Source: Prorocentrum cordatum (lineage: Eukaryota). From it: a stretch of 64,000 nucleotides of DNA. Positions 38,456-57,400 of the stretch are shown here, one piece after another. Each line of letters opens with the position of its first letter. Within the stretch, counting starts at the first letter, position 1. The notes beneath the pieces are model-generated. The model was not told where the DNA came from, searched no databases, and worked only from the letters and a program-made list of their open reading frames with translations. A program made the position numbers and the translations under genes. Where the stretch lies: NCBI GenBank assembly GCA_963575745.1, contig CAUYUJ010000003.1, forward strand, positions 744,001-808,000. Direction: 5' to 3'.

Positions 38456-40134
38456 GTTTTTTTTTTGTTGCCGTTTTTTTTTTTTTTTTTTTTTTGTTTA
38501 TAATATTTTTATTCTTATTATTATTATTATTCCTAAGGCTACTGACACACAAGGTCGAACAAAAAACAAAACAAATTTGCTCCCAACGTGGCTGCTTGAC
38601 AATTTCATAATGACGCCATGTCGTAACGGCGCGCCCGTGCCACCTAGCTGCGACGGCGCGTGCGGGAATGCTGTGCATGACCAGCGCAACTCAGTTCAAA
38701 GAGGCTTGGCCCTGAACGTTTGGGGACTGTAGTAAGCTTTCCTGGTTGAGGAAAGTCCCTATGTCTATGTGTCCTTCAATGCTGATGCAACACTAGGGTA
38801 CCGCCGACTAAGCAGTCGAATCCTTGCGTGGAAAAGACTGCGCAACAGTGCCAGCACCCCCGACCCTAGCATTATTATGTGCATACACAATAGAGTCGCA
38901 GAGGCAAGCACTAAGCAAGCACATTCTGGGGGGGAGGGGGCGAAGGAGGATCATAGAAAGCATCCAGGTAAAATCCTTGTGATAGTAAGCCCGAGGAAGG
39001 TCATCACCCAGCCAACGAAGAATGAGCTGACGGAAATCATCGCAATATTTGTAGTGCACCATGTCATCCACCGCCCCCCTGTTGATGTTCTCTTGGTCGT
39101 GGCAGGATTGGCACCGAAAGATGCATGACTTCGGGACATCGTGAAACCGAGCAGCAGTATTAACTCCACGACAGCAAACACGAAGCACACCAAACCAAAG
39201 TGCGGCGACGATTTCGCAATGACAGCCTTGACCTGTTGTACCAGAGTAGTGACCATGCCAGGAGTGGTCTGTGGGAGCCAGTTGTGAAGGCGCGTGTAAA
39301 TGTCGTCCAAGGGGGAGTCACCGGACCAGTGATGAACATACAGTTGTTTATAAAGCTTAGCTTGGAGGTGAACTGCATCAGCGGGTATGCCAATAACATC
39401 AGAAGGTTGTTGACGAGCCATGGAAAGAACTTGGGTGAGGAACGACCGCTGGAACCAGCAAGCTGGGTTGGTGTGTACATGTCGGAAAGGGATGCATTCG
39501 TCGTGCATGGTAGCGGCCTGGAGGTCCATTTGGGCTTGCCGAAGTTGGGGTACCTTCCTGAGTACCCGCAGCTGGGATGCTTTGGCCAAGGGATGTCCTT
39601 GTACTCCAATGTCATCCCGAGTAGCCTCATATTGGTAAGCATGCTATAGGAGAAGGCGTTCCTCGGGGCGGCAGGAAGAAGTTGCAGAGCAGCCTCATAA
39701 GCACGTTCAACGGCAGGGGAGACAGGAAGAAATTGAAGAAGAAATTGAAGTACTGAGACACACATCACTTGGAAGGTATGGACGATGATGGTATATCCAA
39801 GCCCCATGTTCCGAAGCTCGCGCACTCGTAGGGTGAATTTCTTCAGGGCCTTGTTCCATCCGGTGTCGCCGGCGGTGGGACCAATGACCATGCCCAAGTA
39901 TTTGACCGCAGTAACAATAATGACCCGCTCAAGACCATTACCGAGGGCGTCCAGGTGAGCCTGAACATCATGAAGGTCAACTTCACCACAGAGTAGGAGG
40001 TGGCATTTCCCGAAGTTTAACTTGAGGCCGCAGGCGCTGTCCAGGATGAGGAGGGCCGATCAGATGGTGCCAATGGACAAGAAAACGTCAGCCATGCCGA
40101 AGAGGCAGTCGTCCGCGTAAGCCAGTGGACGTTC
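38456..40134 (-). mobile_element. 5'-truncated L1/Tx1-like LINE with an (AAT)n/poly(A) tail and 15-bp TSD
   Basis: AYADD at about 40107-40121, GLKLNFGKC, KYLGMVIG, C-terminal C..C...DDMVHYKYC. T-rich tail at 38456-38531 on the + strand. Exact TSD GAGCCTGTTGGGGGC at 38441-38455 and 40135-40149. Confidence 0.92.
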
Positions 40135-40139
40135 GAGCC

Positions 40140-40480
40140 TGTTGGGGGCTTCTTGGGGGCCTCTTGGGTCCTCTTGTGGGCTTCTGGGGTCTTCTTGGGC
40201 TGTCTGGGCGCGTCGTAAAGTTCTTTGGGGGTTTTCTTGGGCCGTCTCGGCGCCATCTTGGGCCGTCTTGGGGTTTTCTTGGGCCGTTTGGGGGCCTCCT
40301 GGGGCACTCTCAAGAGTCTCTTGGGACCCTCTTGGCCCGTCCTGGGCCGTCTTGGGGCTCTTGTGAGCTGTCTGGGTGCCTCCTGGAGCGCTCTTGGGGG
40401 TCCCTTGGGACCCTCTTGGGGCGCTCTTGGGCGCTCTTGGGGCCCTCGGGGGCGTATTTTGGGCCTCCTTTGGGCCGTTC
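40140..40480. repeat. Degenerate 10-11 bp (CTCTTGGGGGC)n minisatellite; related tracts at about 15860-16110 (reverse) and 22015-22115
   Basis: Direct inspection. Confidence 0.8.
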
Positions 40481-40629
40481 GAAAGGTCTCCGGGAGCGAT
40501 TCCCAGACGACGTCGATTCGGAGTCCCCTCCCGTCCGTTTTGTCGAGGATGTCTCGAACGAAACGGCCATGTTTCAGAAACCTGACTGGACAAGAACGGG
40601 AAGTGCAGCTCTGTCCACGAAACTTGTCA

Positions 40630-43600
40630 GACCGCAGGCGAGGCGAGCTGGAAGAGGCCCGCGCTGCGGCGGAGGTGGCCCAGGCTGCTGAGCTGCCGCG
40701 CTCCGCGCGCATGTGCAGGGAGGCCAACGCTACGGGCAAGGCGGAGAAGCGCCTCGGCAGGGCCCGCAAGGCCCTCGAGGCCAAGCGGGAGGCGCGCGAG
40801 GAGCTCGTCGAGCAGCTCGCCGCCCTCGACGCCGAGCTGGAGGACAAGGAGGCTTTCCGCGGCTTGGAGGCCGAGAGCCAGGCAGCAGCGGAGGGCGAGC
40901 GGCTGCGCAAGGCAGCGGAGCTCCCCGAACGCAGCCATGTGCCTGGGCTCCTCACGCAGCTCCGAGGCCTGCAGGCAGCGCGTCGTGGCAACTTCGAGTG
41001 CGCGTGGTCGGAGATCGAGAAGCAGATGTCGGCAGTGGCGGCGCAGCTCGCTCTGGGCAGCGCACCGCCGTCGCGCGACTCCTGGGCGGAGAGCTGCCCC
41101 ATCGATGACGAGCTGGGCATCCGCAACGACGATGCTCCCCTCGCCTCAGCCGCAGACAAGACCAAGATCCGACGGGTTTGGCCAGCCCAGCCTGCGGCCA
41201 TGCGAGGCCAGGGCGAGCGGTTCAGGGCAGCCGCGGGGCCGTGGCCTTGCGTCTCGGAGGCGGCCAGGCGCCCCGTGTCAGACGCTGAGAGGGCTCCTGC
41301 GCGGCCTGCTCCTGCAGGCGAGGGCGGCGGCGGCAGTGCAGCGGGATCCGCAGCAGTGGGGCCGCCAGGCCTCTGACCTCGAGGTCGGCCAGGTGCGCTC
41401 CCTCCCAGGGCCGAGGTGCGGCTGCCAGGTGGGCCTGCCCCTCGGCCAGTCGGGCCCGCGAGGCGACAGCGCCCTGGCCGGCTGGGAGAGCACGACTGGG
41501 GTTGGCCAGGTGGCCCACCCCGCAGGGCAGAGGGGCTCGGGCCAGGTGGGCCCGCCCCGAGGCCAGCCAGACCCGCGAGGCAGCAGCGCCCTGGTCGGAA
41601 GCCGCAGCCCGAGGAGAGGCGGCCATGTGGGCCACCCCACAGGGCTGAGGGGATGCGGCCAGGAGGGCCCGCCCCGAGGACAGTCGGACCCGCGAGGCGA
41701 GTGGCCGACAGCGCGCAGCCCTGCATAAGCCCACTGGTGCGGCCAGGAACGCAGATGCGGCCACCTGGCGACCAGGAAGAGGGTAGGTGCGGTGGGATTC
41801 AGCCCCACGTCGTCGCAGCACCTACGCTCGGCGGTGGCCGGGAGGCGCAGCAGGGCGGGCCGAGCCAGCTGGCAGGAGGAGCACGGCGAGTGGCGGCTGC
41901 TGACGCCATCATCTGGGGCCGGGTGTGCGACCTCGACCCGACGGCGCAGGCGCCAACGGTCGCTTTCGCCGAGGCCCTCGCCAGCGGCCTCGTCGTGTTG
42001 GGCTGCAACGGCAGCGGATGGCGACGCTCCTTGGAGGTGCTGGAGGGCTACGCGCGCCTGGTTGGTGCCTGGCCGCACGTCGTGACCCTCCAGGAGACCA
42101 GGCTCCTGGCGACGAGCAAGATAGCATCCGCATTTGGCACCGCTGGAGCCCTGGGCCCTCATGGCTACATTGCACGGCCTTCCACCACACCGCCAAGGCC
42201 ACGGTGGGCACTGGGGCCAGCTGCACCTCGGGGGAGTCTCCGTCCTGGTGCGCAAGGATTTGACAGCGAGGGAGGTGCCTTGAACGGTGCCAGCAGGCCG
42301 CTCTCACCGATTGCTGGGAGTGGAGGTGATGATGCCGTCAGGCCTAGAGCTCATGGTCGCCTCGGCCTACTTCGAGCACATCATCGGGCCATGGGCAGGC
42401 AACCTCGATCTGCTGCGAGCGGTGGCACAGCTCACCATGGCAGCTGGGTGTACGCCGTGGCTGCTGCAGGCGGACTTCAACATGGAACCAGCGACCTTGC
42501 AGGAGCTCAGCTGGCCAGAATGTCACCGCGCAGTGGCCATCGCGCCTTGGGTCCCGACTTGCTTTGCGGCAAAGCAGGAGAAGACCTTTGACTGGTTCGT
42601 GGCGTCGCAGGACCTCGCGTACGCGGCGAGTACCTGTCGTCCTGCGCCAGGCCTGGCGCTTCACCCTCACACGTCTGTGGAGCTCACCCTCCAGGACCTG
42701 CGGCCAGACGCGTTGGTCCAGGTCCTGAAGAACCCTCGGCCTTTTCCGCATCGGGACATCAATGCCTGCGAGGCCCATGAAGATGCGAGGGTCGAGGTCT
42801 TCCGTCGAGTGGGCCGAGCGGGGAAGTGGCAGCGAGGTCCCCTCGAGTGGTGCTGGCAGCCAGGGGAGCGGCCTCGCAGCCTCGAGCTTGGCCTGCGGCA
42901 GTGGATGGCAGCAGCGGAAAGGGCGCTGATCGGTACCCACGACATCGACGAGCAGCAGTGAGGCCAGCACTGCGGCCGAGGAGGAGGGCCCGTCATGGTC
43001 CTCAAGCCGATGAGCGCCCTGACGAGACGCAGACACCGGGTGCTCCATGCCGCGGTCACTTACGAGCTGCGCTGCTTGAACGATCTTGCGCAGCAGCGGA
43101 TCAAGGCGGAGGTGGCGGAGAAGTACCATGCGTCGCACGAGGGATGGTACAGCACCGAAGCTCACAGGCGCTGCAAGCGCCTGGTCATCGAGCTGGAGGC
43201 TGCGGCCAGCAGCGGGCACGGCTTCGATATCGGTGGCGACTAGGAGGAGCTGATCCACGACCCGTGCGCGAAGGGCGTCGCCGAGGCAGTCATCGTGCTA
43301 CGTGGGCGGCTTGCAGCGGCTCATCGCCATGATGCCAGCAGGCCGCAGGCGGAGTGGAGGGAGTGGGCTGAGGTGGCGGTCCAGCGAGGCGGGCGTCTGG
43401 AGCACCGCTTCGCCCGCGCCACCGCCCCTCCTGCCGTCCATGATGACCCTGACTCTGGACGGCCGCTGGCAGGGACGGCCTCCTTGCTGCGGCTCAGGCA
43501 GGAGCGGCAGCGCCCATGGCTCCAGGACGGTTTCCTCGGCGGCAGGGGCGTCCAGACGTGGGGCGTGAGAGAAGCTGTCCTACCCCCCCTGTCACTGGAG

Positions 43601-46600
43601 GGCCTGACGCTGTCGCTACCCCCCCCAGTGCGGGCTGGGCGCGGACCAGTTCCACCCGCGCCAGATCCTCCTGCTGCCGACGGCGCTGCAGGAGTGGCTG
43701 CTGGACCTCATGCAGGAGTTTGAGGGCGCCCCCCTGCCAGGTCTGGTCGGCTGTTACCATGATGGCGTTCATTCCGAAGCCCTCAGGCGGCCTCAGGCCG
43801 ATCGCGCTGCTGCAGCGGATGCTTCGCTTGTGGGGCCGCCTGCGCCAGCCTGTGTGCAGCCAGGGGAGGAGCCCACAACTTCCTTTCTTTTGGGAACGCG
43901 GAGTCTGTGGATGTGAGCTTGCAGGCAGGACGCAGGACGCACAACACGGCCGCGTCACGCGCCCAAGGACAGGGGATGGCAACTGCGTCCCTGTTCGTCG
44001 ACATCGACATCTCGAAGTTCTACGAGAATGCGCGGCATGACGTGCTCTGGGAGGTGGCGGTGCAACATACTTTCAACCTGACGCTGTTGAGGGGGCTACT
44101 GGCCAGCTACCAGAGCCCGCGCTGTGTGGCCATGGCAGAGCTGTGCACGGTGGCGTTCACCACCAGCGGCGCGATCCTGGCCGGCTGCGCGTGCGCCACT
44201 GCACTGGCCAACTTGCCCATGCTGGGCCCGCCCCTGGCGATGACGGTTGGCCGCCCCCTCATCTGCCCCAGGAATGCGGTCGACGACGTGCCCCTGCAGG
44301 CCATCGGCACCGAGCGCCTGGCGGTGCAGCAGCTCAGCGAGGCGGGGGCCCAGCTGGTCTCCATGCTCATGGCGCAGCACCTGCCCGTCAACGCGGCCAA
44401 GACCCACCTTCTGGCCAGCACCCCAACAGTGGCGGGAGGGCTGAAGGAGAGGTGGCAGCTTCACGTCTGGTCCTTCAGCCAGGAGCTGCAGGCCAGGAAC
44501 TTCGGCATTGACGCCTGCATGGCGCGCAGAAGGGTTGCCGAGAGCGCGGCCAGGGCTCGGCAATCCCTCAGAAGTGGCCGCAGGATGCAGAGCATGAAGG
44601 CAGCGGGGGTTCGTGTCGACGCTGTCTTCGAGACTGGGCCCTCGTCCAGCTTCCTCTGGGGGAGGGCGGTCGTCGGCATCCCAGTCGGCGACCTGCGCAG
44701 CATGCGCATTGCTGCATGCAGGAGTGCGGGGCGCCTGCACAACGGTGAGCCCCTGGGGCCGCGGCTGTGCGCGGCGGAGGCGCTGCGTGGCAGGGATCTG
44801 GGCCCCGAGGCGGTGGCGGCGGGCAGGGCCGCGTCGATGGCGGCGGCAGTCCTGCAGAGCGGCGCTATCTCGCAGCCCACGTTTGTGGCGGAGGTGGACC
44901 GCGCGGCCACCCGCCAGCGTGCGGCGACGGCCCCTTATGCCCTCGGGTGCACTGCCGCTCGCCCGTCGACGCCCTCATTCTCACGCTCGGACGCATCGGC
45001 TGGGGCGTGCGCGGGACGGACCTGGTCGCGGACTTCGGAGGCGTCCTAGGCCTGACCTCTCTCGGGCCCAAGGACCTCATGACCGAGGCAGAGAAAGGAG
45101 CGCGGAGGGCCTCTGACAGGCGGGAACTTGGCCGCCTGGCCAATGGCGGGCGGCATTGCCACCTTCTCTTCTGGGACGCCATCTGCGAGCTGATCGGGCC
45201 CCGCGGCTCCCTCGGCCACAGAGAGAAGGCGGGCTTCGTTTCGGTCTTCACGAACGCCCGCTGGCCCCAGCAACGCCTCCTGGCGGCCAAGGAGCGCGAC
45301 CACGGGTGCTGCCTCCTCTGCGGTGCGGAGAGCGGCACGCTCTTCCATCGCCTGTTCGAGTGCCCAGCGCTGGAGGCGGCCGGGAGGGACAGCTGCTCCG
45401 TGCGTTTGAGGCGTTGTGCTCAGAGAGTGGGGCAGCTTGGGGAGGCGGCCGCGGAGGACGTCGCTGGCTGCTGGCTGCCTGCCCCCATGCTTCGCCTACC
45501 TGGTCTGGGCAGTGGCATGGAGAGTCGCTGGTTTCACACGCCTGATGATGGATTCCTGCGTGGGCGGCTGTTCCTGGACGGGTCGGCGCCCGAGCCGACA
45601 CACGCTGGTCGCGCCAAGCTGGATGGGCGATCTGACAGGTCAGCGAGGACGGCACCTTGGAGGCTGCCTCCTATGGCACGGTGAGGGCCGACCTGTGCCC
45701 GCAGCAGACGGCCAAGAACGCCGAGGACTTCGCCAGCTGGATGCTGACTGAGGTCGCGGGGTCTGGGCGGCACATCCTGCACGTCGATTGCGCATCCACG
45801 GTCCCTTGCCTGAGGCGAGGGCGCCGGTGCGCCACTGGCATTGGTCGACCTGGCACCCACCTCTGGAGCAGGTTCTTCGCTGTCTCTGGGCCCGAGGACT
45901 ACGAGGTTCGCAGAGTACCAGCTCACCTGGCGCGGGCGCAGGTGCAGAAGGGGCGTGTCTCAGAGCAGGAGTGGGGTGGCAACAGGTCTGCGGACATCTA
46001 CGCCAAGCTCGGGCCCTCGCTGCATGCTGTCCCGCGGGAGGTGCTGGTCCACTTCAAGGCTTTCGCGCCGATCGTGGCGGAGCTGGCGCGGCGGATCGCC
46101 CAGGTCTCCATCCTGGTGCAGCAGGGCGGCCTACGCAACGCGCAGGGCTTGCCTGAGGGGCTGGAGAGGAGGAGGCCTGTGGTGACGTTCGACGGCGACC
46201 CGAGCTTCCACCCTGCGGAGGTGGCCGTCCCTGGGTTGGCGCCCAAGCGTAAGCGCTCCATGGCTTGGGTGCGGGGCCGCTCATCGTGCTGGGCCACTGC
46301 CTGCGCTACGCTGTGGCCGACGGCGCGGACGATGGGCCCACGGCGGAGCGCCTGATCAGCTGCAGCCGCTGCGGCGCCTACGCTGGCATCGACGGAGGGC
46401 CCAAGCTGCATGAGGAGTGCTTGGGCTGCCCTCCCAAGGGGCCTAAGGGCAAGGGCGGTCGCGACCAGCTCAGCCTTTGGGATCGGGGGCTGCACCCAAG
46501 CGGCCGCAGAGGGAAGAAGAAAGCCGTCAGGATGCTGCGCCAGATGGGCGTCACCAGTGAGCTGAGGGGCGGCATCCTGGCCTGGTTCGGCGCGCTGCCC

Positions 46601-46900: not shown

Positions 46901-47059
46901 GAGGGGTGGAGAGCGTGTGGCGGCGGTTGGCCGCCCATGCGAGGACTCTGCGCTGCCTGCCTGTCGAGGCAGCAGCACTTCCAGCGGGCCTCCGCAGAGC
47001 CAAAAGGTCATGCGAGGCGCTGACGCGCCCCCTCCGCCCCCCAAGCGTGTGGCCCAGTG

Positions 47060-47250
47060 GGGCAGACCACAGCAATATAGCAGACCACCGCAGCACGGCA
47101 GACCACAGCAGCATAACAGACCACAGCAGCACGGCAGAAGACCAGCACGGCAGACCAGCACGGCAGACCACAGGAGCATAGCAAACCACGGCAGCACGGC
47201 ACACCAGCAGAGCAGACCAACACGGCAGACCAGCACGGCAGACCAGCACG
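47060..47250 (-). repeat. (AGCACGGCAGACCAC)n minisatellite, reverse complement of the family at 51-55 kb
   Basis: Direct inspection. Confidence 0.8.
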
Positions 47251-47299
47251 AGCTTCGTACGTACATAGATAGCATCGAAAACACCTCATCCGAAGCTGC

Positions 47300-50200
47300 A
47301 TTTGTTCGAGGATGTCTGCAGCGAGAGCCTCGTTTTGAAAAAAAACGAAGAATTCGCGAGCAACTTCAACACACCATTTTACTGAGGATATCTGCAGCCA
47401 GAGCCGCACTCTTTGGGAACATCGTCGCAGGGCGGATCCTCCCGCGTGCGCGGTGTGGGAGGATTTCTCAGGCGAAACGCTTGTTTTTGCAAAAGACAAT
47501 GCTGGTTAATTCGTAGTGTGGTGAGGATCTCCTGAGCGAAGTTGTCGTTCCCGGTCGCCTTGAAGGCGCTCTTGGGGTCAGATCGAGGCTAGTATTCGGC
47601 TCTTCGGGGCCGTCTCTATGCCATAAGCAATGATTCCCATGAGATGCTCGACACATATCTTTGTTGGGAATGCCCCGAGCGAAATCGTCAATTAAAGGCC
47701 GATGTCGGTCGTCTTGAAGCCTTTTCGAAAGCGATTACAAGACAATGTTAGACCAACCTATTTCAAAACGGTGATATCGCGTTTGTCATTTAATTGAACA
47801 TGCCCCTAGCATTTTCGGCAGTGCTCTTGGAGTCATGGTGGGGTCCTTTGGGTGATTGTTTGTCAGCTTGCAGCATTTCAAAAAACGATATCAAGACGAT
47901 GTTGAGGCCATACCGTTTTTTGAGGGCGTCCCCAACGAAAGGGGGCCTAGACTGCCGTGCTGGTCGTGTTGGTCTGCCGTGCTCCAAAGCATGCTCTTAA
48001 GATGCCCTTCGCGAAAACGTTGTTTGACCATAAGGGGAACTAAGCCACCCCTGTCGACGTCTTCCTTGTTCGAGGATGTCTCAGGCGAAACGCTCGTATC
48101 TACGCACATCGAAAATCATCGACCTTATCGTTTGGAGGATGTCTCATGCGAAACGCTCGATGTTGTGAAAGACGATGTTGCGAACATCTCAATTGTGTGA
48201 GGATGTCTCAGGCGAAATGCTCATGTGGGAAACCTTTCCTGACATGAACGGGCAGCGCGTGAAACCGAAAAGCGTGGCAAGAACATGCAACAGCATCGAG
48301 AGCGACTTTGGCATAGGCGCTCTTCCCGAGCATCCACAGGGGGTATCAGGTGGAGTTCACTACCCGCACAAATTCAGGCAGATGAGAGACACTCCGTATC
48401 CTGGCCATGATGCTCGGGGAAGGGGGTCCTGGAGCCCAGGTGCTCTTCGTCGTCGTCGTCGTCCTCCTCCTCCTTCTCCTCCTCATCCTCCAACCGAGTC
48501 AAGAAAAAATCGAGCCCGCCAAAAACAGTCACCAAACGCCTCGGGTGACTGTTTTGTTGCGGGCGCCTTTGTGGCCAACCGGGGAAAGCTGAACTCGCGC
48601 GGGGAGTGAACTCCACCTGCTCTGGGCGATGGAGGGGCGGATCCCCGCGGGTGGTCAGGACCAAGAACAGGTGGAGTTCACTTTCCGCTTGAGTTCAGCG
48701 ACACGCGCGAACTGACATGGGCAGCAAGCTCAACCTGGCACACCTCGCGGTCAATCGGGGAGGGCTGACCTCGAACTGGGAATGAACTTCACCTGCTGTG
48801 GCTGTAGTGCAGGCGCTTTCCCCGAACATCCACTGTGATATCAGTTGGAGTTTACGTCCGCGCAAGTTCAGGCGAAGCCCCAGAATGTTGAATAACACAA
48901 TAGTTCCTTCCATCTGTTCAAAGCCCAGCCCTACAGACCCTAACCCTACATACCCGAACCTGCATCGGCATGTCCAACATGACCTGATTGTTTCGAGGAC
49001 CCGTTCGAAGGCATGTGTAGGGGGATGTCTCGAGCGAAACGCTGATTTTTGAACGACAGTGTTGAAACCCATGTGTTTTTTCAATAATTTCGCTTATGGG
49101 GCCATCTTGGAGCGAATCCGAAAGCGCTCTGATTGGATGCCTGAAAAAAGCTCGTGGCGCATCCCATTGTTTCAAGGATGTCTCCAGCGAAGCTGCATTT
49201 TGAAGGTCCGAAAACTAGAACAACGATTTCAACACCCCCGGTTTCCGTCTCGGGCGAAGCGCTCAGTGTTAGTATGAGACGTCTTACGATAAGAGCACCC
49301 GCGAAACGCCCATTACTGAGAACCTTTACCGGCATGAACAGGAAGCGCGTGAAAGCGACGAGCTCTGCAAGAGCGTGCAACATCATCACTATAAAATGCT
49401 ATCGCATCTCAACACGATCCGCCTCCAGACCCCACAACCCCACTCAAGATCCCCTATGTCAGGTCGAGTTTAGTTTCCGCGCAAATTCAGAAACAACGCA
49501 CCTTCCACTGGCGCACCTTGGCAGTATGAATCTCCAGACCCCCTTATCTCACCACTCGCGTTCGCCTATGTCAGGTAGAATTTACTTTCCGCGCGAGTTC
49601 AGACGAAGCGCACCCCCCGCTGGCACATCTCGGCATTATCCGTCTCCAAACCCTCAGCCTCCCCACTCGCGCTCCCCAAGTCGGCTTTGCTACGCGCGCG
49701 AGTTCAGACGAGGCACACCCCCCGCTGGTGCATCTCGGCATTATCTGTGTCCAGGCCCCCCACCTCCCCACTCGCGCCCCCCCATGCGAGGTGGAATTTA
49801 CTTTCCGCGCGAGTTCAGACGAGGCGCGCCCCCCGTTGGCGCATCTCGGCATTATCCGCCTTTGGACCCTCAACCTCCCAACTCACGTTCCCACATGTCA
49901 GGTCGAGATTTCTTTCCGCACGAGCTCAGGCGAGGCGCATCTCCCGCTGGCGCATCTCAGCATTATCCGTCTCCAGACCCGCAACGTCCCCCACTCGCGT
50001 TCACCCATGTCAGGTCGAGTTTGCTTTCCTCGCGAGTTCAGACGAGGCGCACCTCCCGCTGGCGCATCTACGATGACGACGACGATGACGATGACGACGA
50101 CGACGACGACTGCGATGATGACGACGACGATGACGATGACGACGACAGTGACGACGACGACAATAACGAGGAGGAGGACGACGACAACGACGATGACGAT

Positions 50201-50760
50201 GATAATGACAACGACAACGGCAACAACAACGACGACGATGCAAGGTTGATGATGGATCGAGCAAACAATATACGTGCTAGCAAAATGGTTGGGTTGTTTT
50301 CCAATAGTTTGCCTCGTGGGCCGTCTTGGGGGTCCTCCAAAAAAACGCCTCCAATATATGTCGCAAGACAGCTTATGACACATCGCATTGTTTTGAGGAT
50401 GTCTCAGGCGGGAGCCTCGTTTTTGAGAATACGACTAATTCGCAAGCTCCCTGGGCATCTCCATTTTCAGAGGGTGTCTCGGGAGAGAGCTACATGTTTA
50501 ACATAAGAGGTCTAATCACAGCTCTTTCGGCACCTATGGGTTCGAGGATGTCTCAGGCGGAACACATAGTTTTGGAGATCGGCGACTTTCGCTAGAAATT
50601 TCAATATCTCCACTTCGCGAGGATGTCTGTAACGAGAGCATCAGTCGTAACAGAAAGAGCCCTACAATAGATCTTCCGAGATCTCCATGTTGTAAAGATG
50701 TCTCAGGCCAAATCACCATTCTGGATAACCTGGCCGGACAAGAACGGGAAGCGTCGCTTG
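47300..50760 (+). repeat. Clusters of the ~20-bp motif GAGGATGTCTCAGGCGAAA at 63-76 bp spacing with variable intervening sequence
   Basis: Copies at about 47308, 47384, 47459, 47523, 48072, 48135, 48199, 49021, 49175, 50395, 50470, 50544, 50619 and 50695. Confidence 0.8.
49440..50070. repeat. Tandem repeat, about 110 bp x 5-6 (CGCGAGTTCAGACGAGGCGCA...GGCGCATCTCGGCATTATC)
   Basis: CCACTCGCG-type anchor near 49551, 49662, 49769, 49880 and 49991. Confidence 0.85.
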
Positions 50761-51084
50761 TGTCCACTAGGTATGTGAAATATGCTCGCGTGTTGGTCTA
50801 CCGCGCAGATGTGTCGTGGCGTGCGTGCCTTTGCGCGTGCGCGTGCGTGCGTGGAGTCTGCGCATGTGTGTCTGTGCGTGGTGGTCTGCGGCACTGCTGT
50901 GTTATGCCGCGCTGCTATGCCGAGTTCTTGCGGTCTGCGTTAACGTATGTTGCCTTTCTCTGTGTGTGCGTGTGTGTGTGTGCGTGTGTGTAAGCGTCTA
51001 TGTGTGCGCGTGCGTGTGCGTGTGCGTGTGCCTGTGTGCGTGCGCCTATGTGCGTGTGAGTGTGGGTGCGGCTGTGCGAATAGG

Positions 51085-51564
51085 ATGTTCTGTGAGTTCT
51101 GCCGTGTTCCTGCGTGTTCTGCCGTGCTCCTGTGTGTTCTGCCGTGCCCCTGTGTATTATGCCATGGTCCTGCTCTGCCGTGCTCCTACGTGTTGTGTCA
51201 TGTTCCTGTGTGTTCTGCCGTGTTCCTGTGCGTTCTGCCGTGATGCTGCTTGCTCTGCCGTGCTCCTATGTGTTTTGTGTGTTCTGCCGCGCTCCTGTGT
51301 TTTGCCATGCTCCTGTGTGGTCTGCCGTGCTCCTGTGTACTCTGTGTGTTCTGCCGTGCTCCTCGAAATCCTGCGTGTTCTGCCGTGCTCATATGTGCGC
51401 TGCCGTGCTGCTGCGTGTTCTGCCGTCAATTCCGCCGTGCACCTGTGCGTTATGCCGTGCTCCTGTGTGTACTGCTGCGCCCCTGCATGTTCTGCCGCGC
51501 TCCTGCTTGTTCTGTCGTGTTCCTATGCGTGTTGTGTGTATGTTCTGCCGTGCTCATGCGTGTT
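51085..51564 (+). repeat. (GTGTTCTGCCGTGCTCCT)n minisatellite, resuming at 54586-54950 after the inserted retroelement
   Basis: Same unit on both sides of the insertion. Confidence 0.9.
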
Positions 51565-54500
51565 AAAGTTGAAATTAAAGTTAAAGACGGGGCCTTCAAG
51601 GCACAGGGAAAGGAAAACGGGGACAGGGCCAGGCGGGACCAACGTTCCCGAGAGACGCCGAGCCCCAAGCAAGCGAGCCACGCGCGCCTACTCACACGGG
51701 AGCAACAGGCGCGGGCGGACAGGCGGGAAGGCCTTCACTCACTCCCCGACGACTCCGAGCCGCGGCGCGCCAGGCGGCGGCGGACCCTACGGCTCACCAG
51801 GCCGCCGCCAGGCGCGGCGCCCGCGGCTGCGCGCTCCCCCTCGGCGGCCTCACCTGCGCCGAGGGCGCCAGCACTCGGGCCTGGCCGCTGTTGGGGAAGG
51901 CTGGCAGCCGCCGCCTCCGCTGCCCGCGCTGCCGCGGGAGCCGCTGGGCCGCTGCCCGAACTGCTGGCCGCGGCTGAGGCTCCGCCTGCAGGCTCCGCCC
52001 CCATGCCGAGCCACCCCAGGTAGCGCTCCTGGGCGCGTCCTGGCACTGGCCCTTGCGAGCGCAAGGCAGGGGTGCCCTCTGCTCTCACTCTCTGCTTGTC
52101 CGCTCGAGGCCTGCCACCAGGATGGGGCCCTCGCTCCCACGGGCTGCGCTGGTTCCTGCCCGACTTGTTGGTCAGGTAGCTGAGCCCTGGGCACTGCACC
52201 TTCAGGCGAGACTTGCCTCCTGCGTGGCTGCCCAGCACCCTGTAGGCGCCACACTTGGCGCACGCCACGATCTCCTGGGTGTCCCCACCTTCGCCCGCGC
52301 AGGCATAGCTGAGCACGTGCCCCAGGATGCTGAAGGCGACAGCGGTGGCCGAGAGGGCGGCCGTGCTGCTCCCCGTCGAGCGGCTGTCCTCCAGGCGTGG
52401 CCGCGTGGCTGGAGCGCCGCCGCCGAGGGCCTCACCAGCCTGCGGGGGCTCCGCTGCCGCCGCGGACTGCACCTGGCCGATCCCGCCAGCAGGAGGGAAC
52501 CCTTCGCTGCTCAAGGCCGAGCCATCGACGTACTGCTTGCCGTAGTGTCTGCCAACACCAACAGGCGGTCGACTCCACCAGCTACGCATCGCCACGAATG
52601 CGTTGGGAATGGAGGCACCTCGCGCGTGCCGCACCTTCACGTACCGCTCGACTCCTGGCCTGGGCAGCAGCCCGATGGCGCCCCCGAACAACTGCCAAAG
52701 CAAGAGGGGCCTGCAGTAGAGGTTCCGCCTCTCATGGCGGTAGAAGGCCTGCAGAGCACACGTGCTTGCCACCGAGCTCATCGCCCGCGGCTCGAGGGAC
52801 ATGGGATCGAACTCGTCACCGAGGTCCATGACCATGCACCACTCCGGCTCGAGGCACCAGACGACGCTCCACTGGGTTCGCACCACCGCGCCGACGGGCG
52901 AGGCACGGCGCGCACCTGTGGCGGCTGTAGCGCACCTGGCTGCTGTCGCCTCCCGTCCCTGAGCTCGCGCCCTGAGTGGCTGCTCGGTAGGCTGCTGCGG
53001 ATCCGCAATCCTGGCCATCGTCTCGGGATGCCCAGGTACGCCTGCTCTGCCCATGGAGTCGCTCCACTCGCTAGTGCCGAACTCAAGGGCACCAACCACG
53101 TTCTCCTCGGCGCACAGGAGGATGAGGACACAGCTGGGCCCTGCAGCGCGCTCCTGGCCCCTGGGCGGGTCGAGGACGCCCATGTCGTGGAGCTCTACCA
53201 AGTCGCTCTCGACGACCTCGGTGCCGCTCTCGTGCAGCCGCAGGCCCGCCGCACAGGCCTCGCTAGGCGCTCGCTGGCCCTGGCTGCGCCCCTCCGACGC
53301 GGCCCCCAGCGGACCTGCGAGCAGGATGAGAAGCCAGAGGAGCCAAGTCCGCTGCCTCTGCAGCCAGCTCCCGCTTGCATGCCTGGGCCACCGTCGGCCA
53401 CTCGCCCAGCGCCTTGCCGCGCCGCTCGGCTCGGCCTCGCTCCGCTGCTGGCTGAGGCTGCCAGGGGCCGCCGCCGTCCGCGAGATCGCCATCGTCGCTG
53501 CTGATCTCCTCCATGGGGCAGGACTCGGCCCACGGCGCGCGCTTGGGGGCCACTGGGGCCCCCTCGAGCTGCGCCCGCACTGCCTCCATCTGGGCGCGAA
53601 TGGCTGCCCGAGCCACCTCGAAGTTGCTGGAGCCCCATGCCTCTGGCAACTTTTCCAGCTAACCCTGGCACCTGGCTGGCTCCTGTCCACTCGGCTGCGC
53701 GCTGGCGGCGCAGCGCCTCAGCCTCCTCACGGGCTGCCTCCTCTAGCACCTGGAGCGCACGGGTCGCCTCCTCCACCTCCGCGTCGAGCTCCGCGAGCTC
53801 CTCCTGGGCCTTCTGGAGCTGGGCCTCGACGAGGTCGCGCGCCTCCTGCTTCTGCTCGAGCTCCAGGCGGGCTGCCCGGAGCCGCTTCTCACCCTTGCTG
53901 ATGGCGTTCGCCTCCCTGTGGGGCCGCGTCGCCCATGGCAGGGGAGAGGCCTTCTGCTCCGCTGCTGCCTTTTGGGCCCTGACCAACTCGGCACGCTTCG
54001 CCTCCAGCTGGCTGGCCACGACGTCGGTGAAGCAGCCGTCCACTCCGTCGGGCGGCTCGGCCTGCAGCGCCTCGAGCTGCTCGACTGCCGCCTGGAGCCT
54101 CTCGATCGCCGTGGCGCCTCCACCGCTGGGCGTCCCACTCGCTGCCGACGCCGAGGTCTGCGACTTGGTGGAGGCTGCCCGCGAGGCCGCGCCGCGGGCC
54201 TGCCTCTGGGCACGGCGCCCACGTGGCTGATCCACCCAGCCGTCCTTGTCCGCCTTGGGCCTCGCCTTGGCTGGGGGCGTCCCCATCGCCCAAGGCGGGG
54301 CCGCATACCCGCAGCCAAGGCACGAGGTGCGCCAATCCCAGTTCCATCCGCCGCAGCTGCACATCCAGTAGGACTTGCTGCACCTGCTGCTGCCACCGCC
54401 GCGCGGGGACCTCGCCATGGCCACTGCCGCGCTGGCCGAAGGGCTGCGCCTCCGCGCCGCGAAAGCAGGGAGCACAAACACGAAATGCACTGGCCCAAAG

Positions 54501-54585
54501 CGCGGAGACCCTCGCGCTCAGAGCGCCGCGAACGACTCGCGGTCGTCGGGTTCTCCATGGCCTTGAGCCAAAATGGCTACGGATT
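51565..54585 (-). mobile_element. Non-autonomous LINE derivative (ORF1 with RanBP2-like zinc finger and coiled coil, RNase H-like remnant, C-terminal Cys/His domain, no EN or RT) capped by a dinoflagellate spliced leader
   Basis: WMCSCGGWNWDWRTSCLGC. NFE...QM...WAESCP and LGH...CAKCGAY are shared with the 40.6-46.9 kb LINE. (TTTAAC)-like 3' tail. Candidate TSD GTGCTCATG(C/T)GTGTT at 51550-51564 and 54586-54600. Confidence 0.82.
54562..54583 (-). other. Complete genomic copy of the dinoflagellate spliced leader (DinoSL)
   Basis: Reverse complement TCCGTAGCCATTTTGGCTCAAG, 22/22 match to DCCGTAGCCATTTTGGCTCAAG. It is followed by GCCATGG, not by a GT SL-RNA intron. Confidence 0.97.
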
Positions 54586-54954
54586 GTGCTCATGTGTGTT
54601 CTGCCATGCTCCTGCGTGTTCTGCCGCGCTCCTGCTTGTTATGCCGTGTTCTGCCGTGCCCCTCCTGCTCCTGTGGTGTGCCGTGCTTCTGTGTGCTCTG
54701 CCGTGCTCCTGTGTGTGTTCTGCCCTGTTCCTGTGTGGTCTGTGCGTTCTGCCGTGCACCTGCGTGTTCTGCCGTGCTCCTGTGTGTTCTGCCGTGTTAC
54801 TATGTTTTCTGTGTGTTCTGCCGTGCCCCTCGTGCTCATGTGTGTTCTGCCGTGCTCCTGTGTTCTGCTGTGCTCCTGTTTGTTATGTTTTGCTCCTGGT
54901 TGTTCTTTGGGTTCTGCCGTGCTTCTGCGTGTTGGGCTGCCGTGATCCTGCCAA

Positions 54955-57400
54955 TGTTCTGAAGATGTCTCTGGCCAAAAGCTCAGTTGGAACATGCATG
55001 GTCTTAAATCAGCCTTCTCAACATCGTATTGTTTCGAGAATGTCTCAGGCGACATCCCCATGGACATACGTGTGTTACATTCGCTGTTTTCATTGTCTGG
55101 TAGATGTCTCAGGCAAAATGCTTGTGTTTGTGAAAGGCGGTGTTGCGAACAACTCGTGTGTTTTGGATGCATCGGGCGAAATACGCATTTTGAGGAATTT
55201 CGAGGGCGCTCCTGGAGTCATATTTTGGCTCGGTTGGGGCTCGTTGGGGCTCGTTCGGGGCCGTTTCGATGCCATCAAAAACGATGTCAATGCGATGTTA
55301 CACACATCTCGTTTTTGAGGATGTCCCTTGCGAAATCGTCATGGTTAGAAGCCTGGCTTGGGCCATCTGGAAGCCTTTTCAAGAGCGATCCCAAGACGAT
55401 GTTAGAACAGCAGGTTTGAAAACGATGCTTTGGTATACTTTCATTTGTTTGAGGATGTCCCTCGCGAAATCGTCATGTTCGGCAGTCATCAGGGCACTCT
55501 TGGAGCCATATTGGGAGCATATTTGGGCTGTTATTTCTTCATCGTGAAAGCACTTCGCCCCGGGGCCATGAGCGACAACTGCAGGGACCAGGTCTGCGAG
55601 CGAAATAACAGTGCGGCCGACACAGCCACCGGCGCCAGGCGCAGGTGTGACGCTGCCATGTCTTCATCGTTGGGCTGTAATTTCTTCATCGTGAAAGCAC
55701 TTCAAAAATGGTGTCGACACGATGTTGAGAACATCGCATTTTTTTGAGGACGTCCCCAGCGAAATGCAAATTGTCTACCGTGCTCTTTTTTCTGGTCCGC
55801 CGTCCTGCCTCTCATTTTCTGAAGACCTCCCTCGCGGAAACGTAGTTTTCAACATAAGAGGTAGTAATGCACCTCCGTCTACACCTCATTTGGGTTAGGG
55901 TGTCTTAGGCGAAATGCAAATTTTCACAGATGCATGAATTTCGCGGCGATCAGCGTTTCGAGGATGTCTCGAGCGAAACGCTTGTTTCTGTTAAAGGCGG
56001 TGTCGCGGAGATGTCATTTGTGTGAGGATGTCTCAAACGAAATCGCTAGTTTGAGGAACCTGTCTTGACATGAACGGGAAGCGCGTGGAATCGATGAACT
56101 TGGGAAAAACTTGCACCAACATCAAGGTCGCATGTCGCGTAGGCGCTCTTACTGACCGTCCAAAGGGGGCGCCAATTGGAATTCGCGACCCGCGCAAATT
56201 CAGACGTGCCGTTTACCCGACCTTTAAAAACAGGTATCCCATGGAGTTCGCTGCCCGCGCACATTCAGACGTGCCGATGACCCGAACGTTCAAAAAAAAG
56301 ATACCACATGGAGTTCGCTGCCCGCGCGAGATCAGACGTGGCGAGGAGAAGGAAGGGCAGGAGGTGGGATGAGAACGACGAGGGGGAGGTTCAGGAGGAG
56401 GACGAAGACGATGAGCAGGAGGAGAAGGAGGGAGAGGAGGAGGAAGAGGAGGAGAAGAACGTGAAATCGAAGAGCTTGGCAAGAAAGTGCACCAACATCA
56501 AGGCCGCACGTCGCGTAGGCGCTCTTCCCGAGCGTCCACAAGGGGTGCCAAATGGCGTTCATTTCCCGCGCAATTTCAGACGTGCCGCTTGCCCCGAGCG
56601 TCCACAAAAAAGGGTACCACATGGAGTTCACTACCCGCAAAAATTCCGCCGTGCCACACCTCCCGAACGTCAATAACAAGTACCAAGCGGAGTTCGCGTC
56701 TCGCGCAAGTTCAGACGTGCCGCGTACCCGAACGCCCACAAAAAAACGTACCAGGTGGCGGTCGCTACCCGCGCGAGCTCAAACGTGGCGAGGAGGAGGA
56801 ACTGCAGGAGGTGAGGTGGGAAGGAGTAGCAGGAGGAGCAAGAGGAGGACGAATAGGCTGAGCAGGAGGAGGAAGAGGGGGAGAAGGAGGAGGAAGAGGA
56901 ATAGAAAAGAGATACAAGGAGAATGACGAGGAATAGGAGGAGGAACATAAGATGAAAAACGAGGACGAGGAGGAAATCTGATGGTATCGAGGACCCGTCC
57001 GAAGGCAATGTTTGGAGGATGTCTCAGGCGAAACGCTCTGATTTTAACAAATCGGTTGAACGCTCATGGGTGTTTCAATCATTTCGCCATGCTCGGCCAT
57101 CTTGGAAGTCATCCGAAATCGCTCTGACAAGATACATAAAACAGCCGTTGCACATCCCACTTGTTCGAATCTGTATCAGGCGAAACGGCCTTCGCCGAAG
57201 ATTCGGCACCTACGCCGTTGATGTCTTCATCCTCGTTTCCCGAGGATGTCTCAGGGGAAACGCACATTCTTAGCATAATGCATCTTGAACGATGGCCTCC
57301 AACATCCCGATTGTGTCAGGATGTCTCATGCGAAATAGCCATTCTGGGTAAGCCTTTTCTCGACATGAACGGGAGGCGATTGAAACCGAACAGCTTAGCA
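54955..57400 (+). repeat. Further GAGGATGTCTC-motif clusters, plus tandem units of about 60 bp (GAGTTCGCTGCCCGCGC...TCAGACGTG) at about 56170-56790
   Basis: Motif at about 54961, 55036, 55101, 55317, 55451, 55746, 55896, 55960, 56024, 57015, 57242 and 57317. Confidence 0.78.

Follow-up and report, generated by a model that had tools for sequence, protein, structure and literature searches.

In some dinoflagellates, relics of the spliced leader (SL) are found on more than 20% of genes. Genomic relics of the dinoflagellate leader (DinoSL) are regarded as marks of retrogenes, or 'recycled processed cDNAs' (Slamovits and Keeling 2008, as cited in the accessible parts of PMC7245778, PMC12014239, PMC5585692 and PMC6050394). 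The retroposition machinery is called unknown in the relevant parts of PMC5585692 and PMC6050394; the latter, a review, favours elements with long terminal repeats (LTR), and the former presumes long interspersed nuclear elements (LINEs) to be the source and gives the Gene Ontology (GO) class 'RNA-dependent DNA replication' as enriched among relic-bearing genes. LINEs of Symbiodinium, as far as they are described in the accessible part of PMC5890265, have target-site duplications (TSDs) and conserved untranslated regions (UTRs), and lack poly(A). Here we analyze a stretch of 64,000 nucleotides from Prorocentrum cordatum (contig CAUYUJ010000003.1, positions 744,001 to 808,000; henceforth the window, in whose own numbering all positions are given), where the minus strand of positions 51565-54585 is a single insert of about 3 kb within a 20-bp minisatellite.

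We read this insert, with confidence somewhat better than even, as a dead full-length retrocopy of a non-autonomous LINE derivative, made from a trans-spliced RNA by LINE-type target-primed reverse transcription. It resembles DinoSL-tagged retrocopies, as the available portions of the sources describe them, in that an intronless unit begins, at its 5' end, with a genomic 22-nt leader, a sign that the template was a mature trans-spliced RNA. It is unlike them in its cargo, which is a LINE derivative, in its resolved ends (15-bp TSD and a hexamer tail, not poly(A)), and in its leader, which is complete and not a truncated relic. Where PMC6050394, in its accessible part, favours LTR elements, this locus instead has the signs of LINE-type integration. 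The locus combines two known kinds, the SL-tagged retrocopy and the non-autonomous LINE derivative; in the accessible parts of the literature (supplements and closed-access papers being outside this scope) neither a LINE nor a derivative of one was found to be explicitly reported as starting with DinoSL.

Boundaries of the insertion

In the sense direction the locus consists of minisatellite, AACACACATGAGCAC, AA, the leader, the 5' UTR, open reading frame (ORF) 1, a remnant of ORF2 in another frame, the 3' UTR, the tail, AACACGCATGAGCAC, and minisatellite again. The features are listed below; EN stands for endonuclease, RT for reverse transcriptase, TRF for Tandem Repeats Finder, and P-numbers for protein records of the element family.

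51096..51549, no strand: 20-bp minisatellite array, downstream flank in the sense of the element (TRF period 20, 21.8 copies at 51096-51524; GCACGGCAGAMC units on the minus strand)
51550..51564, no strand: 3' copy of the TSD (GTGCTCATGCGTGTT on the plus strand), 14/15 identical to 54586-54600
51565..51585, minus: 3' tail, TTTAACTTTAATTTCAACTTT in sense, TTTAAC-like, 21 nt, without poly(A)
51586..51734, minus: 3' UTR, 149 nt, between the stop codon (51735-51737) and the tail
51735..53300, minus: ORF2 remnant of three kept pieces (tblastn of P0016, P0009 and P0015 against the window), with its stop at 51735-51737
about 52002-52526, minus: ORF2 piece 3, C-terminal Cys/His domain (tblastn)
about 52596-52901, minus: ORF2 piece 2, post-RT (tblastn)
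about 52992-53162, minus: ORF2 piece 1, between EN and RT (tblastn)
53263..54418, minus: ORF1, with RanBP2-like finger (54308-54370) and coiled coil; ATG at 54418; broken by an 8-bp deletion near 53660
54419..54561, minus: 5' UTR, 143 nt, also translated in gene models P0012, P0013, P0014, P0020 and P0021
54562..54583, minus: intact 22-nt dinoflagellate spliced leader, TCCGTAGCCATTTTGGCTCAAG, joined directly to the 5' UTR; unique in the window, 0 mismatches
54584..54585, minus: two extra A between TSD and SL (from the sequence; in run X2 the contigs depart from the element at 54583 and not at 54585)
54586..54600, no strand: 5' copy of the TSD (GTGCTCATGTGTGTT), 14/15 against 51550-51564, examined by an array-breakpoint control
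54601..54922, no strand: 20-bp minisatellite array, upstream flank in the sense of the element (TRF 54586-54878, period 20, and 54712-54922)

Period-20 arrays on both sides of the element (51096-51524 and 54586-54878 by TRF) bear out the statement of an earlier note, made on this DNA from its letters alone, that the element interrupts a minisatellite. The same note proposed a 15-bp TSD matching at 14/15 positions; its coordinates for the left copy were one base off, and the duplication itself withstood a control in which the two arrays were rejoined minus the insert and one TSD copy, and the 15 bases on either side of each breakpoint were compared. None of the 761 array breakpoints had four or fewer mismatches between adjacent 15-mers, the minimum being 5. 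Since the array has a period of 20 and not 15, the repeat does not account for the duplication, and the 20-bp phase is restored across the site once the insert and one TSD copy are removed. The insert thus has the kind of TSD that marks non-LTR insertion by target-primed reverse transcription. The duplication encloses the SL, the two extra A and the tail, and therefore the leader came with the inserted cDNA and not from the target. Joints resembling an 'empty site' (51561-51564 to 54586-54605) were not counted as empty alleles, because their sides are only 21-26 letters inside the minisatellite and several have intervening letters. Just past the downstream minisatellite, at 50070-50238 and 50961-51068, there are an (ACG)n repeat with 56 copies and also TG-rich arrays.

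At the 5' end, AA and an intact DinoSL abut the TSD, as the earlier note had it, and the leader is perfect (22/22), which is the DNA-encoded mark by which DinoSL-tagged retrocopies are recognized. Its 21-nt core, with up to 3 mismatches allowed, matches once in the 64 kb, with 0 mismatches, and matched in 0/100 shuffles. There is no second full or relic SL in the window, tandem relics included; a 15-nt relic pattern (up to 2 mismatches) matches the site at 54562-54583 only. The leader is followed by GCC, not by a GT donor, and an Rfam search of 50500-55500 at E<=1 gave neither a ribozyme nor an SL RNA gene, but one sub-threshold match to a long non-coding RNA. Because it is precisely the 22-nt exon that adjoins the UTR, with GCC behind it in place of a GT donor and no Rfam RNA gene, and because this exon lies inside the TSDs, the insert appears to be the full-length cDNA of an RNA whose leader, judging by its identity and exact exon boundary, was added by trans-splicing. 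For the two extra A, an untemplated or cap-related origin is probable. Predicted folds of the UTRs are unremarkable (z-scores -0.77 for the 5' UTR and -1.47 for the 3' UTR). The first AUG of the element is 4 nt past the leader, in the context GCCATGG, and belongs to a 271-aa arginine-rich frame (53743-54558, minus) that overlaps ORF1; this frame is probably a by-product of high G+C, and the AUG of ORF1 is 143 nt into the RNA.

The short (TTTAAC)-like tail noticed earlier was recovered at the 3' end and is the only such site in the window: (TTTAAC)3 with up to 3 mismatches matches there alone, and 0/100 shuffles gave a match. Position 51571 is A in the 11 contigs of run X1 that cover the tail, which corresponds to TTTAAC in sense. 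The element therefore ends in a simple repeat, which, like an A-rich tail, is a mark of target-primed reverse transcription in the absence of LTRs or terminal inverted repeats, although no dedicated scan of its ends for inverted or terminal repeats was made. With a hexamer tail in place of poly(A), and with the 15-bp TSD, the insertion is best ascribed to a related enzyme that worked in trans by target-primed reverse transcription of the LINE type.

Coding content and the RT-less lineage

The element shares ORF1 and the C-terminal Cys/His domain with the LINE at 40.6-46.9 kb of the window, in agreement with the earlier note: ORF1 aligns with 40693-41280 (42-43%) and the C-terminal domain with 46280-46591 (34%). 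Some paralogues are named 'RanBP2-type domain-containing' in UniRef. The claim that EN and RT are missing also holds, on two lines of evidence. Among 37 stop-to-stop ORFs of the element (at least 40 aa, six frames), no Pfam match to RVT_1 or Exo_endo_phos was found with hidden Markov models at E<=0.01. On the LINE at 40.6-46.9 kb, Pfam gave RVT_1 alone, with E 0.0023, below cut-off, in one of 36 plus-strand ORFs, and because Pfam is so weak on this LINE lineage, a lineage-specific test of EN and RT was needed. P0016 (1690 aa) has ORF1 and then segments that match the EN, RT, post-RT, RNase H-like and C-terminal parts of the window LINE. The element matches its residues 1-347, 653-713, 1060-1159 and 1424-1589, and residues 353-652 (EN), 714-1059 (RT) and about 1176-1423 (RNase H-like) have no match anywhere in the element. 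By this comparison the element is an RT-less LINE derivative without the EN and RT of its own that an autonomous LINE would have; beyond what the earlier note described, it keeps two further ORF2 fragments and lacks the RNase H-like part as well.

The assignment of these segments in P0016 draws on Pfam matches that are weak but stand in the expected order (Exo_endo_phos, E 0.0011; RVT_1, 0.059; zf-RVT, 0.025), and weak RNase_H matches were seen in P0009 (E 0.11) and P0015 (E 0.12). A language-model look-up returned nearest neighbours that are all RVT_1/Exo_endo_phos clusters, with scores of 0.90-0.91 that serve as a lead only. By eye, RT-like motifs, among them a VDD/VVDD core, can be read in the window LINE and in P0009. 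The endonuclease appears, from the weak Pfam matches, to be of the APE type. NCBIfam, and PDB searched by sequence and by profile, gave nothing useful, and an AlphaFold model of the RT frame of the window LINE was too poor for a fold search (mean predicted local distance difference test, pLDDT, 44.7). Beside the 5' end of that LINE, a minus-strand open frame at 39160-40059 resembles, by eye, the C-terminal part of a different reverse transcriptase and may be a fragment of another retroelement. G+C content is 0.70 in the element and 0.67-0.70 in the LINE at 40.6-46.9 kb, with most other 2-kb bins at 0.52-0.63, and bins 40001-46000 and 52001-54000, both LINE-type inserts, stand out on this measure.

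Two homology searches gave 11 and 12 proteins, that is, 23 relatives (P0001-P0023), all 23 labelled Prorocentrum cordatum. P0001, with 100% identity over 1-259 and a model that spans the frame breaks, is probably the gene model of the studied locus. In alignment A1, seven of 11 proteins (P0001-P0007, with 55-93% identity to the query) go directly from the post-RT piece to the C-terminal part at one RNase H-less junction; P0009 and P0010 have about 180 extra columns at this junction, and P0008 and P0011 differ. A tree of the C-terminal domain (19 rows, 189 columns) includes P0012 as two rows and leaves out P0008, P0019, P0021, P0022 and P0023, which cover the segment only partially. It separates 11 RT-less rows from 8 fuller rows by a 100/100 branch, the labels of P0011 (fuller) and P0014 (RT-less) having been assigned by judgement from matches between P-proteins and the window. 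The relatives are on many different contigs, and the copies are therefore dispersed. Run X1 gave 1048 short contigs matching the element at 80% or more: 127 at 99% or more, 231 at 95-99%, 362 at 90-95%, and 328 below 90%. Given the shared junction, the split in the tree and these contigs, the RT-less form is not an isolated deletion but a lineage of many copies that is old and has diversified. It has LINE homology at both coding ends and an internal deletion common to dispersed copies, as is characteristic of non-autonomous LINE derivatives, and from such a lineage, which shares an RNase H deletion and forms one well-supported group, we infer that the enzymes had to come in trans. A scan of JGI metagenomes with the ORF1 alignment gave 318 pattern matches, of which 0 were confirmed.

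The studied copy has decayed. Six run X1 contigs carry 8 extra letters behind 53660, where all paralogues read LLMQLEKL, and by this comparison the deletion of 8 bp is private to the studied copy; it shifts the frame of ORF1 and creates a stop, so that the copy is dead. In a small sample (40 of 837 positions selected, 39 of them coding), the best-supported private coding differences from most X1 contigs are distributed over codon positions as 13/15/11, with 26 non-synonymous and 13 synonymous changes, and thus look neutral.

Origin of the leader-tagged copy

In the account that we favour, the source RNA would belong to a LINE lineage with internal deletions, in which ORF1, three fragments of ORF2, the 3' UTR and the hexamer tail are retained. 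The 22-nt SL would be added to this RNA by trans-splicing, as on other dinoflagellate nuclear mRNAs, and a full-length relative would supply reverse transcriptase and endonuclease in trans. Copying would proceed from the TTTAAC tail to the extreme 5' end at a nick in the 20-bp minisatellite, to give AA, SL, element and tail between 15-bp TSDs, and decay of the copy would follow insertion. The SL would then be a passenger mark of the mature RNA template and not a proven working part of the element. Since there is a single SL without a relic, we infer that the simplest source would be a master copy that has a natural acceptor AG just before GCCATGG and lacks a genomic SL.

The earlier note went further and made SL splicing the regular step by which the 5' end is formed: a read-through transcript would receive an SL, perhaps with the terminal AG of the genomic SL itself as acceptor, and the capped RNA would be recopied, with no need of an internal promoter. 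We consider this rather unlikely. Two contigs of run X2 (marine metagenome) follow the element to 54583, the first base of the SL, and continue for a median of 74 letters unlike the studied flank, and a 343-nt contig of run X3, with 13 differences, ends exactly at 54583; but mutual agreement of the X2 flanks is only 0.67, and their source is a metagenome. The 5' UTR bin of run X1 has a summed depth of 392, against 160-250 in ORF1 and 85-175 at the 3' end (depth is not copy number), and therefore the 5' end is not depleted. A search in alternative frames among 1.84 billion representatives gave 2 matches. The peptide P0024 (123 aa, 72% identity) has minisatellite-type residues, an SL-coded stretch with one changed residue, and, directly after it, the family 5' UTR, in a frame open upstream, which would fit read-through if the record is RNA. 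Its far flank, however, matches the window flank 54999-54772 (17 of the first 27 residues, by manual count) and is about as diverged as its element part (72%), so that P0024 is probably a duplicate or orthologue of the studied insertion and not an independent event. Flank homology is a weak guide to orthology here, because the flank at 54923-55600 is itself a dispersed repeat. This repeat recurs in the window at 68-75% identity (47598-47810, 47965-48088, 48127-48224 and 55963-56058), with a motif of about 30 nt around GAGACATCTTC. P0024 and another peptide of the element family, P0025, are filed in EukProt under a green-alga label, which suggests contamination or mislabelling. No SL-coded peptides were found in P0001-P0023, an alternative-frame word search was also empty, and the pattern of SL plus 5' UTR had 0 matches in the JGI metagenome scan. 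The two X2 contigs and the end of the X3 contig weakly suggest SL-started copies at other sites. Against a regular role of SL splicing, there is one SL and no tandem relic in both the studied copy and P0024, whereas known recycled cDNAs, in the accessible parts of PMC7245778 and PMC12014239, pile relics behind a new SL. A single SL without a tandem relic would fit an SL-less master copy at least as well, and re-use of the terminal AG of the genomic SL, a possible alternative, would likewise leave no trace. Of the earlier interpretation, then, the TSD-bounded, SL-started full-length cDNA of a LINE-derived, EN/RT-less, multi-copy element, with enzymes supplied in trans, stands; SL splicing as the regular 5'-end step, for which there are the ends of two X2 contigs and one X3 contig, does not follow from the present data.

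Spread by DNA duplication, either of a host gene family in which the ORF1-ORF2-remnant protein was domesticated or of a single retrocopy that gained its SL once, we hold to be improbable. It would agree with the shared flank and junction of P0024, with the gene model P0012, which spans two adjacent RT-less copies that are sisters in the tree, and with the age of the RT-less group (55-93% identity), which is annotated as proteins of 730-850 aa; in the accessible part of PMC5585692, most Symbiodinium retrogenes are less than 10 kb from their parents. The studied copy, on the other hand, has its own TSD in an in-phase array, the copies are on many contigs, the LINE-type tail is kept and common to 11 contigs, ORF1 is broken, its private changes being of neutral appearance, and frame changes can be crossed in the gene models only by means of introns (P0001 against the window). 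Two run X1 contigs (one for each junction) join the minisatellite at 54626 directly to the element tail at 51568 and 51575; these 3' junctions and the 5' junction of P0024 fall in this repeat too, with phases that agree to about 3 nt, which may reflect either a target preference or duplicated loci. A related minisatellite (GCACGGCAGACC units) is seen at 47058-47255 and 47971-47982, 3' of the LINE at 40.6-46.9 kb and in the same relative orientation as the array around the element.

Least probable by far is a leader acquired by other means than trans-splicing, through insertion in or beside an SL RNA gene or through a template switch of the reverse transcriptase onto SL RNA. SL RNA is abundant and nuclear, template switches onto a small RNA at the 5' end are known from U6/L1 chimeras, and other phyla have LINEs with SL genes as their target (SLACS, CZAR, CRE, NeSL). 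Yet the insert has just the exact 22-nt exon followed by GCC, with no GT donor or intron, inside the TSDs; both flanks are minisatellite, and Rfam gives no RNA gene.

Several points nonetheless weigh against a trans-mobilised retrocopy of a LINE derivative. The enzymatic domains of the 'autonomous' relatives are assigned from sub-cut-off Pfam matches, one language-model lead and by-eye motifs. The only full LINE in the window, a member of a distant subfamily (34-44% identity), lacks the TTTAAC tail and has a different 3' end, and an autonomous partner with the 3' UTR and tail of the element would have to be presumed. The trans-spliced RNA of the element, which the recurrent use of SL splicing would likewise presuppose, is deduced from DNA. 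The gene models of the family are long open frames, and a host function is possible for them. The SL junction and homologous flank of P0024 imply that the family spread at least partly by DNA duplication, or that the locus is common to relatives.

Comparison with described retroelements

The locus links leader-tagged retrocopies to LINE-type insertion, as an SL-bearing RNA integrated with a TSD and a simple-repeat tail, without poly(A). Being cleanly bounded, it makes the origin of SL-tagged retroposition testable, including the TSD length and the target of ordinary SL-tagged retrogenes. As a tentative proposal, which we would not press, a Prorocentrum LINE family and its RT-less parasite may use SL trans-splicing as the normal route to a capped 5' end, with full-length daughters that all start with DinoSL, and the family may nick a preferred position of the minisatellite. 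If this is true, the LINE family is a direct candidate for the machinery behind mass retroposition of SL-tagged mRNAs in dinoflagellates. The locus also raises the possibility that LINEs need no internal promoter where all mRNAs are trans-spliced.

Mammalian HAL1 and spliced L1 insertions are non-autonomous LINE derivatives that keep the termini and lack ORF2 functions. NARTc and RIME of trypanosomes, as far as they are described in the sources available, are like the studied element in that they have an internal deletion, common to many copies, occur in multiple copies and rely on a full-length relative. The studied element is unlike them in keeping three separate ORF2 pieces, and in having a host-added leader at its 5' end in place of an internal promoter such as Pr77.

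The 5' end of R2 is released by a ribozyme like that of hepatitis delta virus (HDV). An HDV-like ribozyme also cuts the 5' end of L1Tc RNA from co-transcripts, according to the accessible parts of PMC3185411 and PMC4035085. If SL splicing were indeed a regular step of the cycle, the studied family would resemble these LINEs in that its 5' end is set by RNA processing of read-through transcripts and not by a promoter. The analogy would be functional only, as the host trans-spliceosome would be the processing agent and would add 22 nt and a cap, and no ribozyme was found by Rfam in 50500-55500.

Like the target-specific LINEs treated in the accessible part of PMC4640811, which insert into repeats or small-RNA genes, the element is inserted in a tandem repeat, and the two X1 3' junctions and the P0024 5' junction, at nearly the same phase of that repeat, would point to target specificity only if they arose independently. 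Unlike SLACS, CZAR, CRE and NeSL, it has as its target a 20-bp minisatellite and not an SL gene; minisatellite forms both flanks, and the SL lies inside the TSDs.

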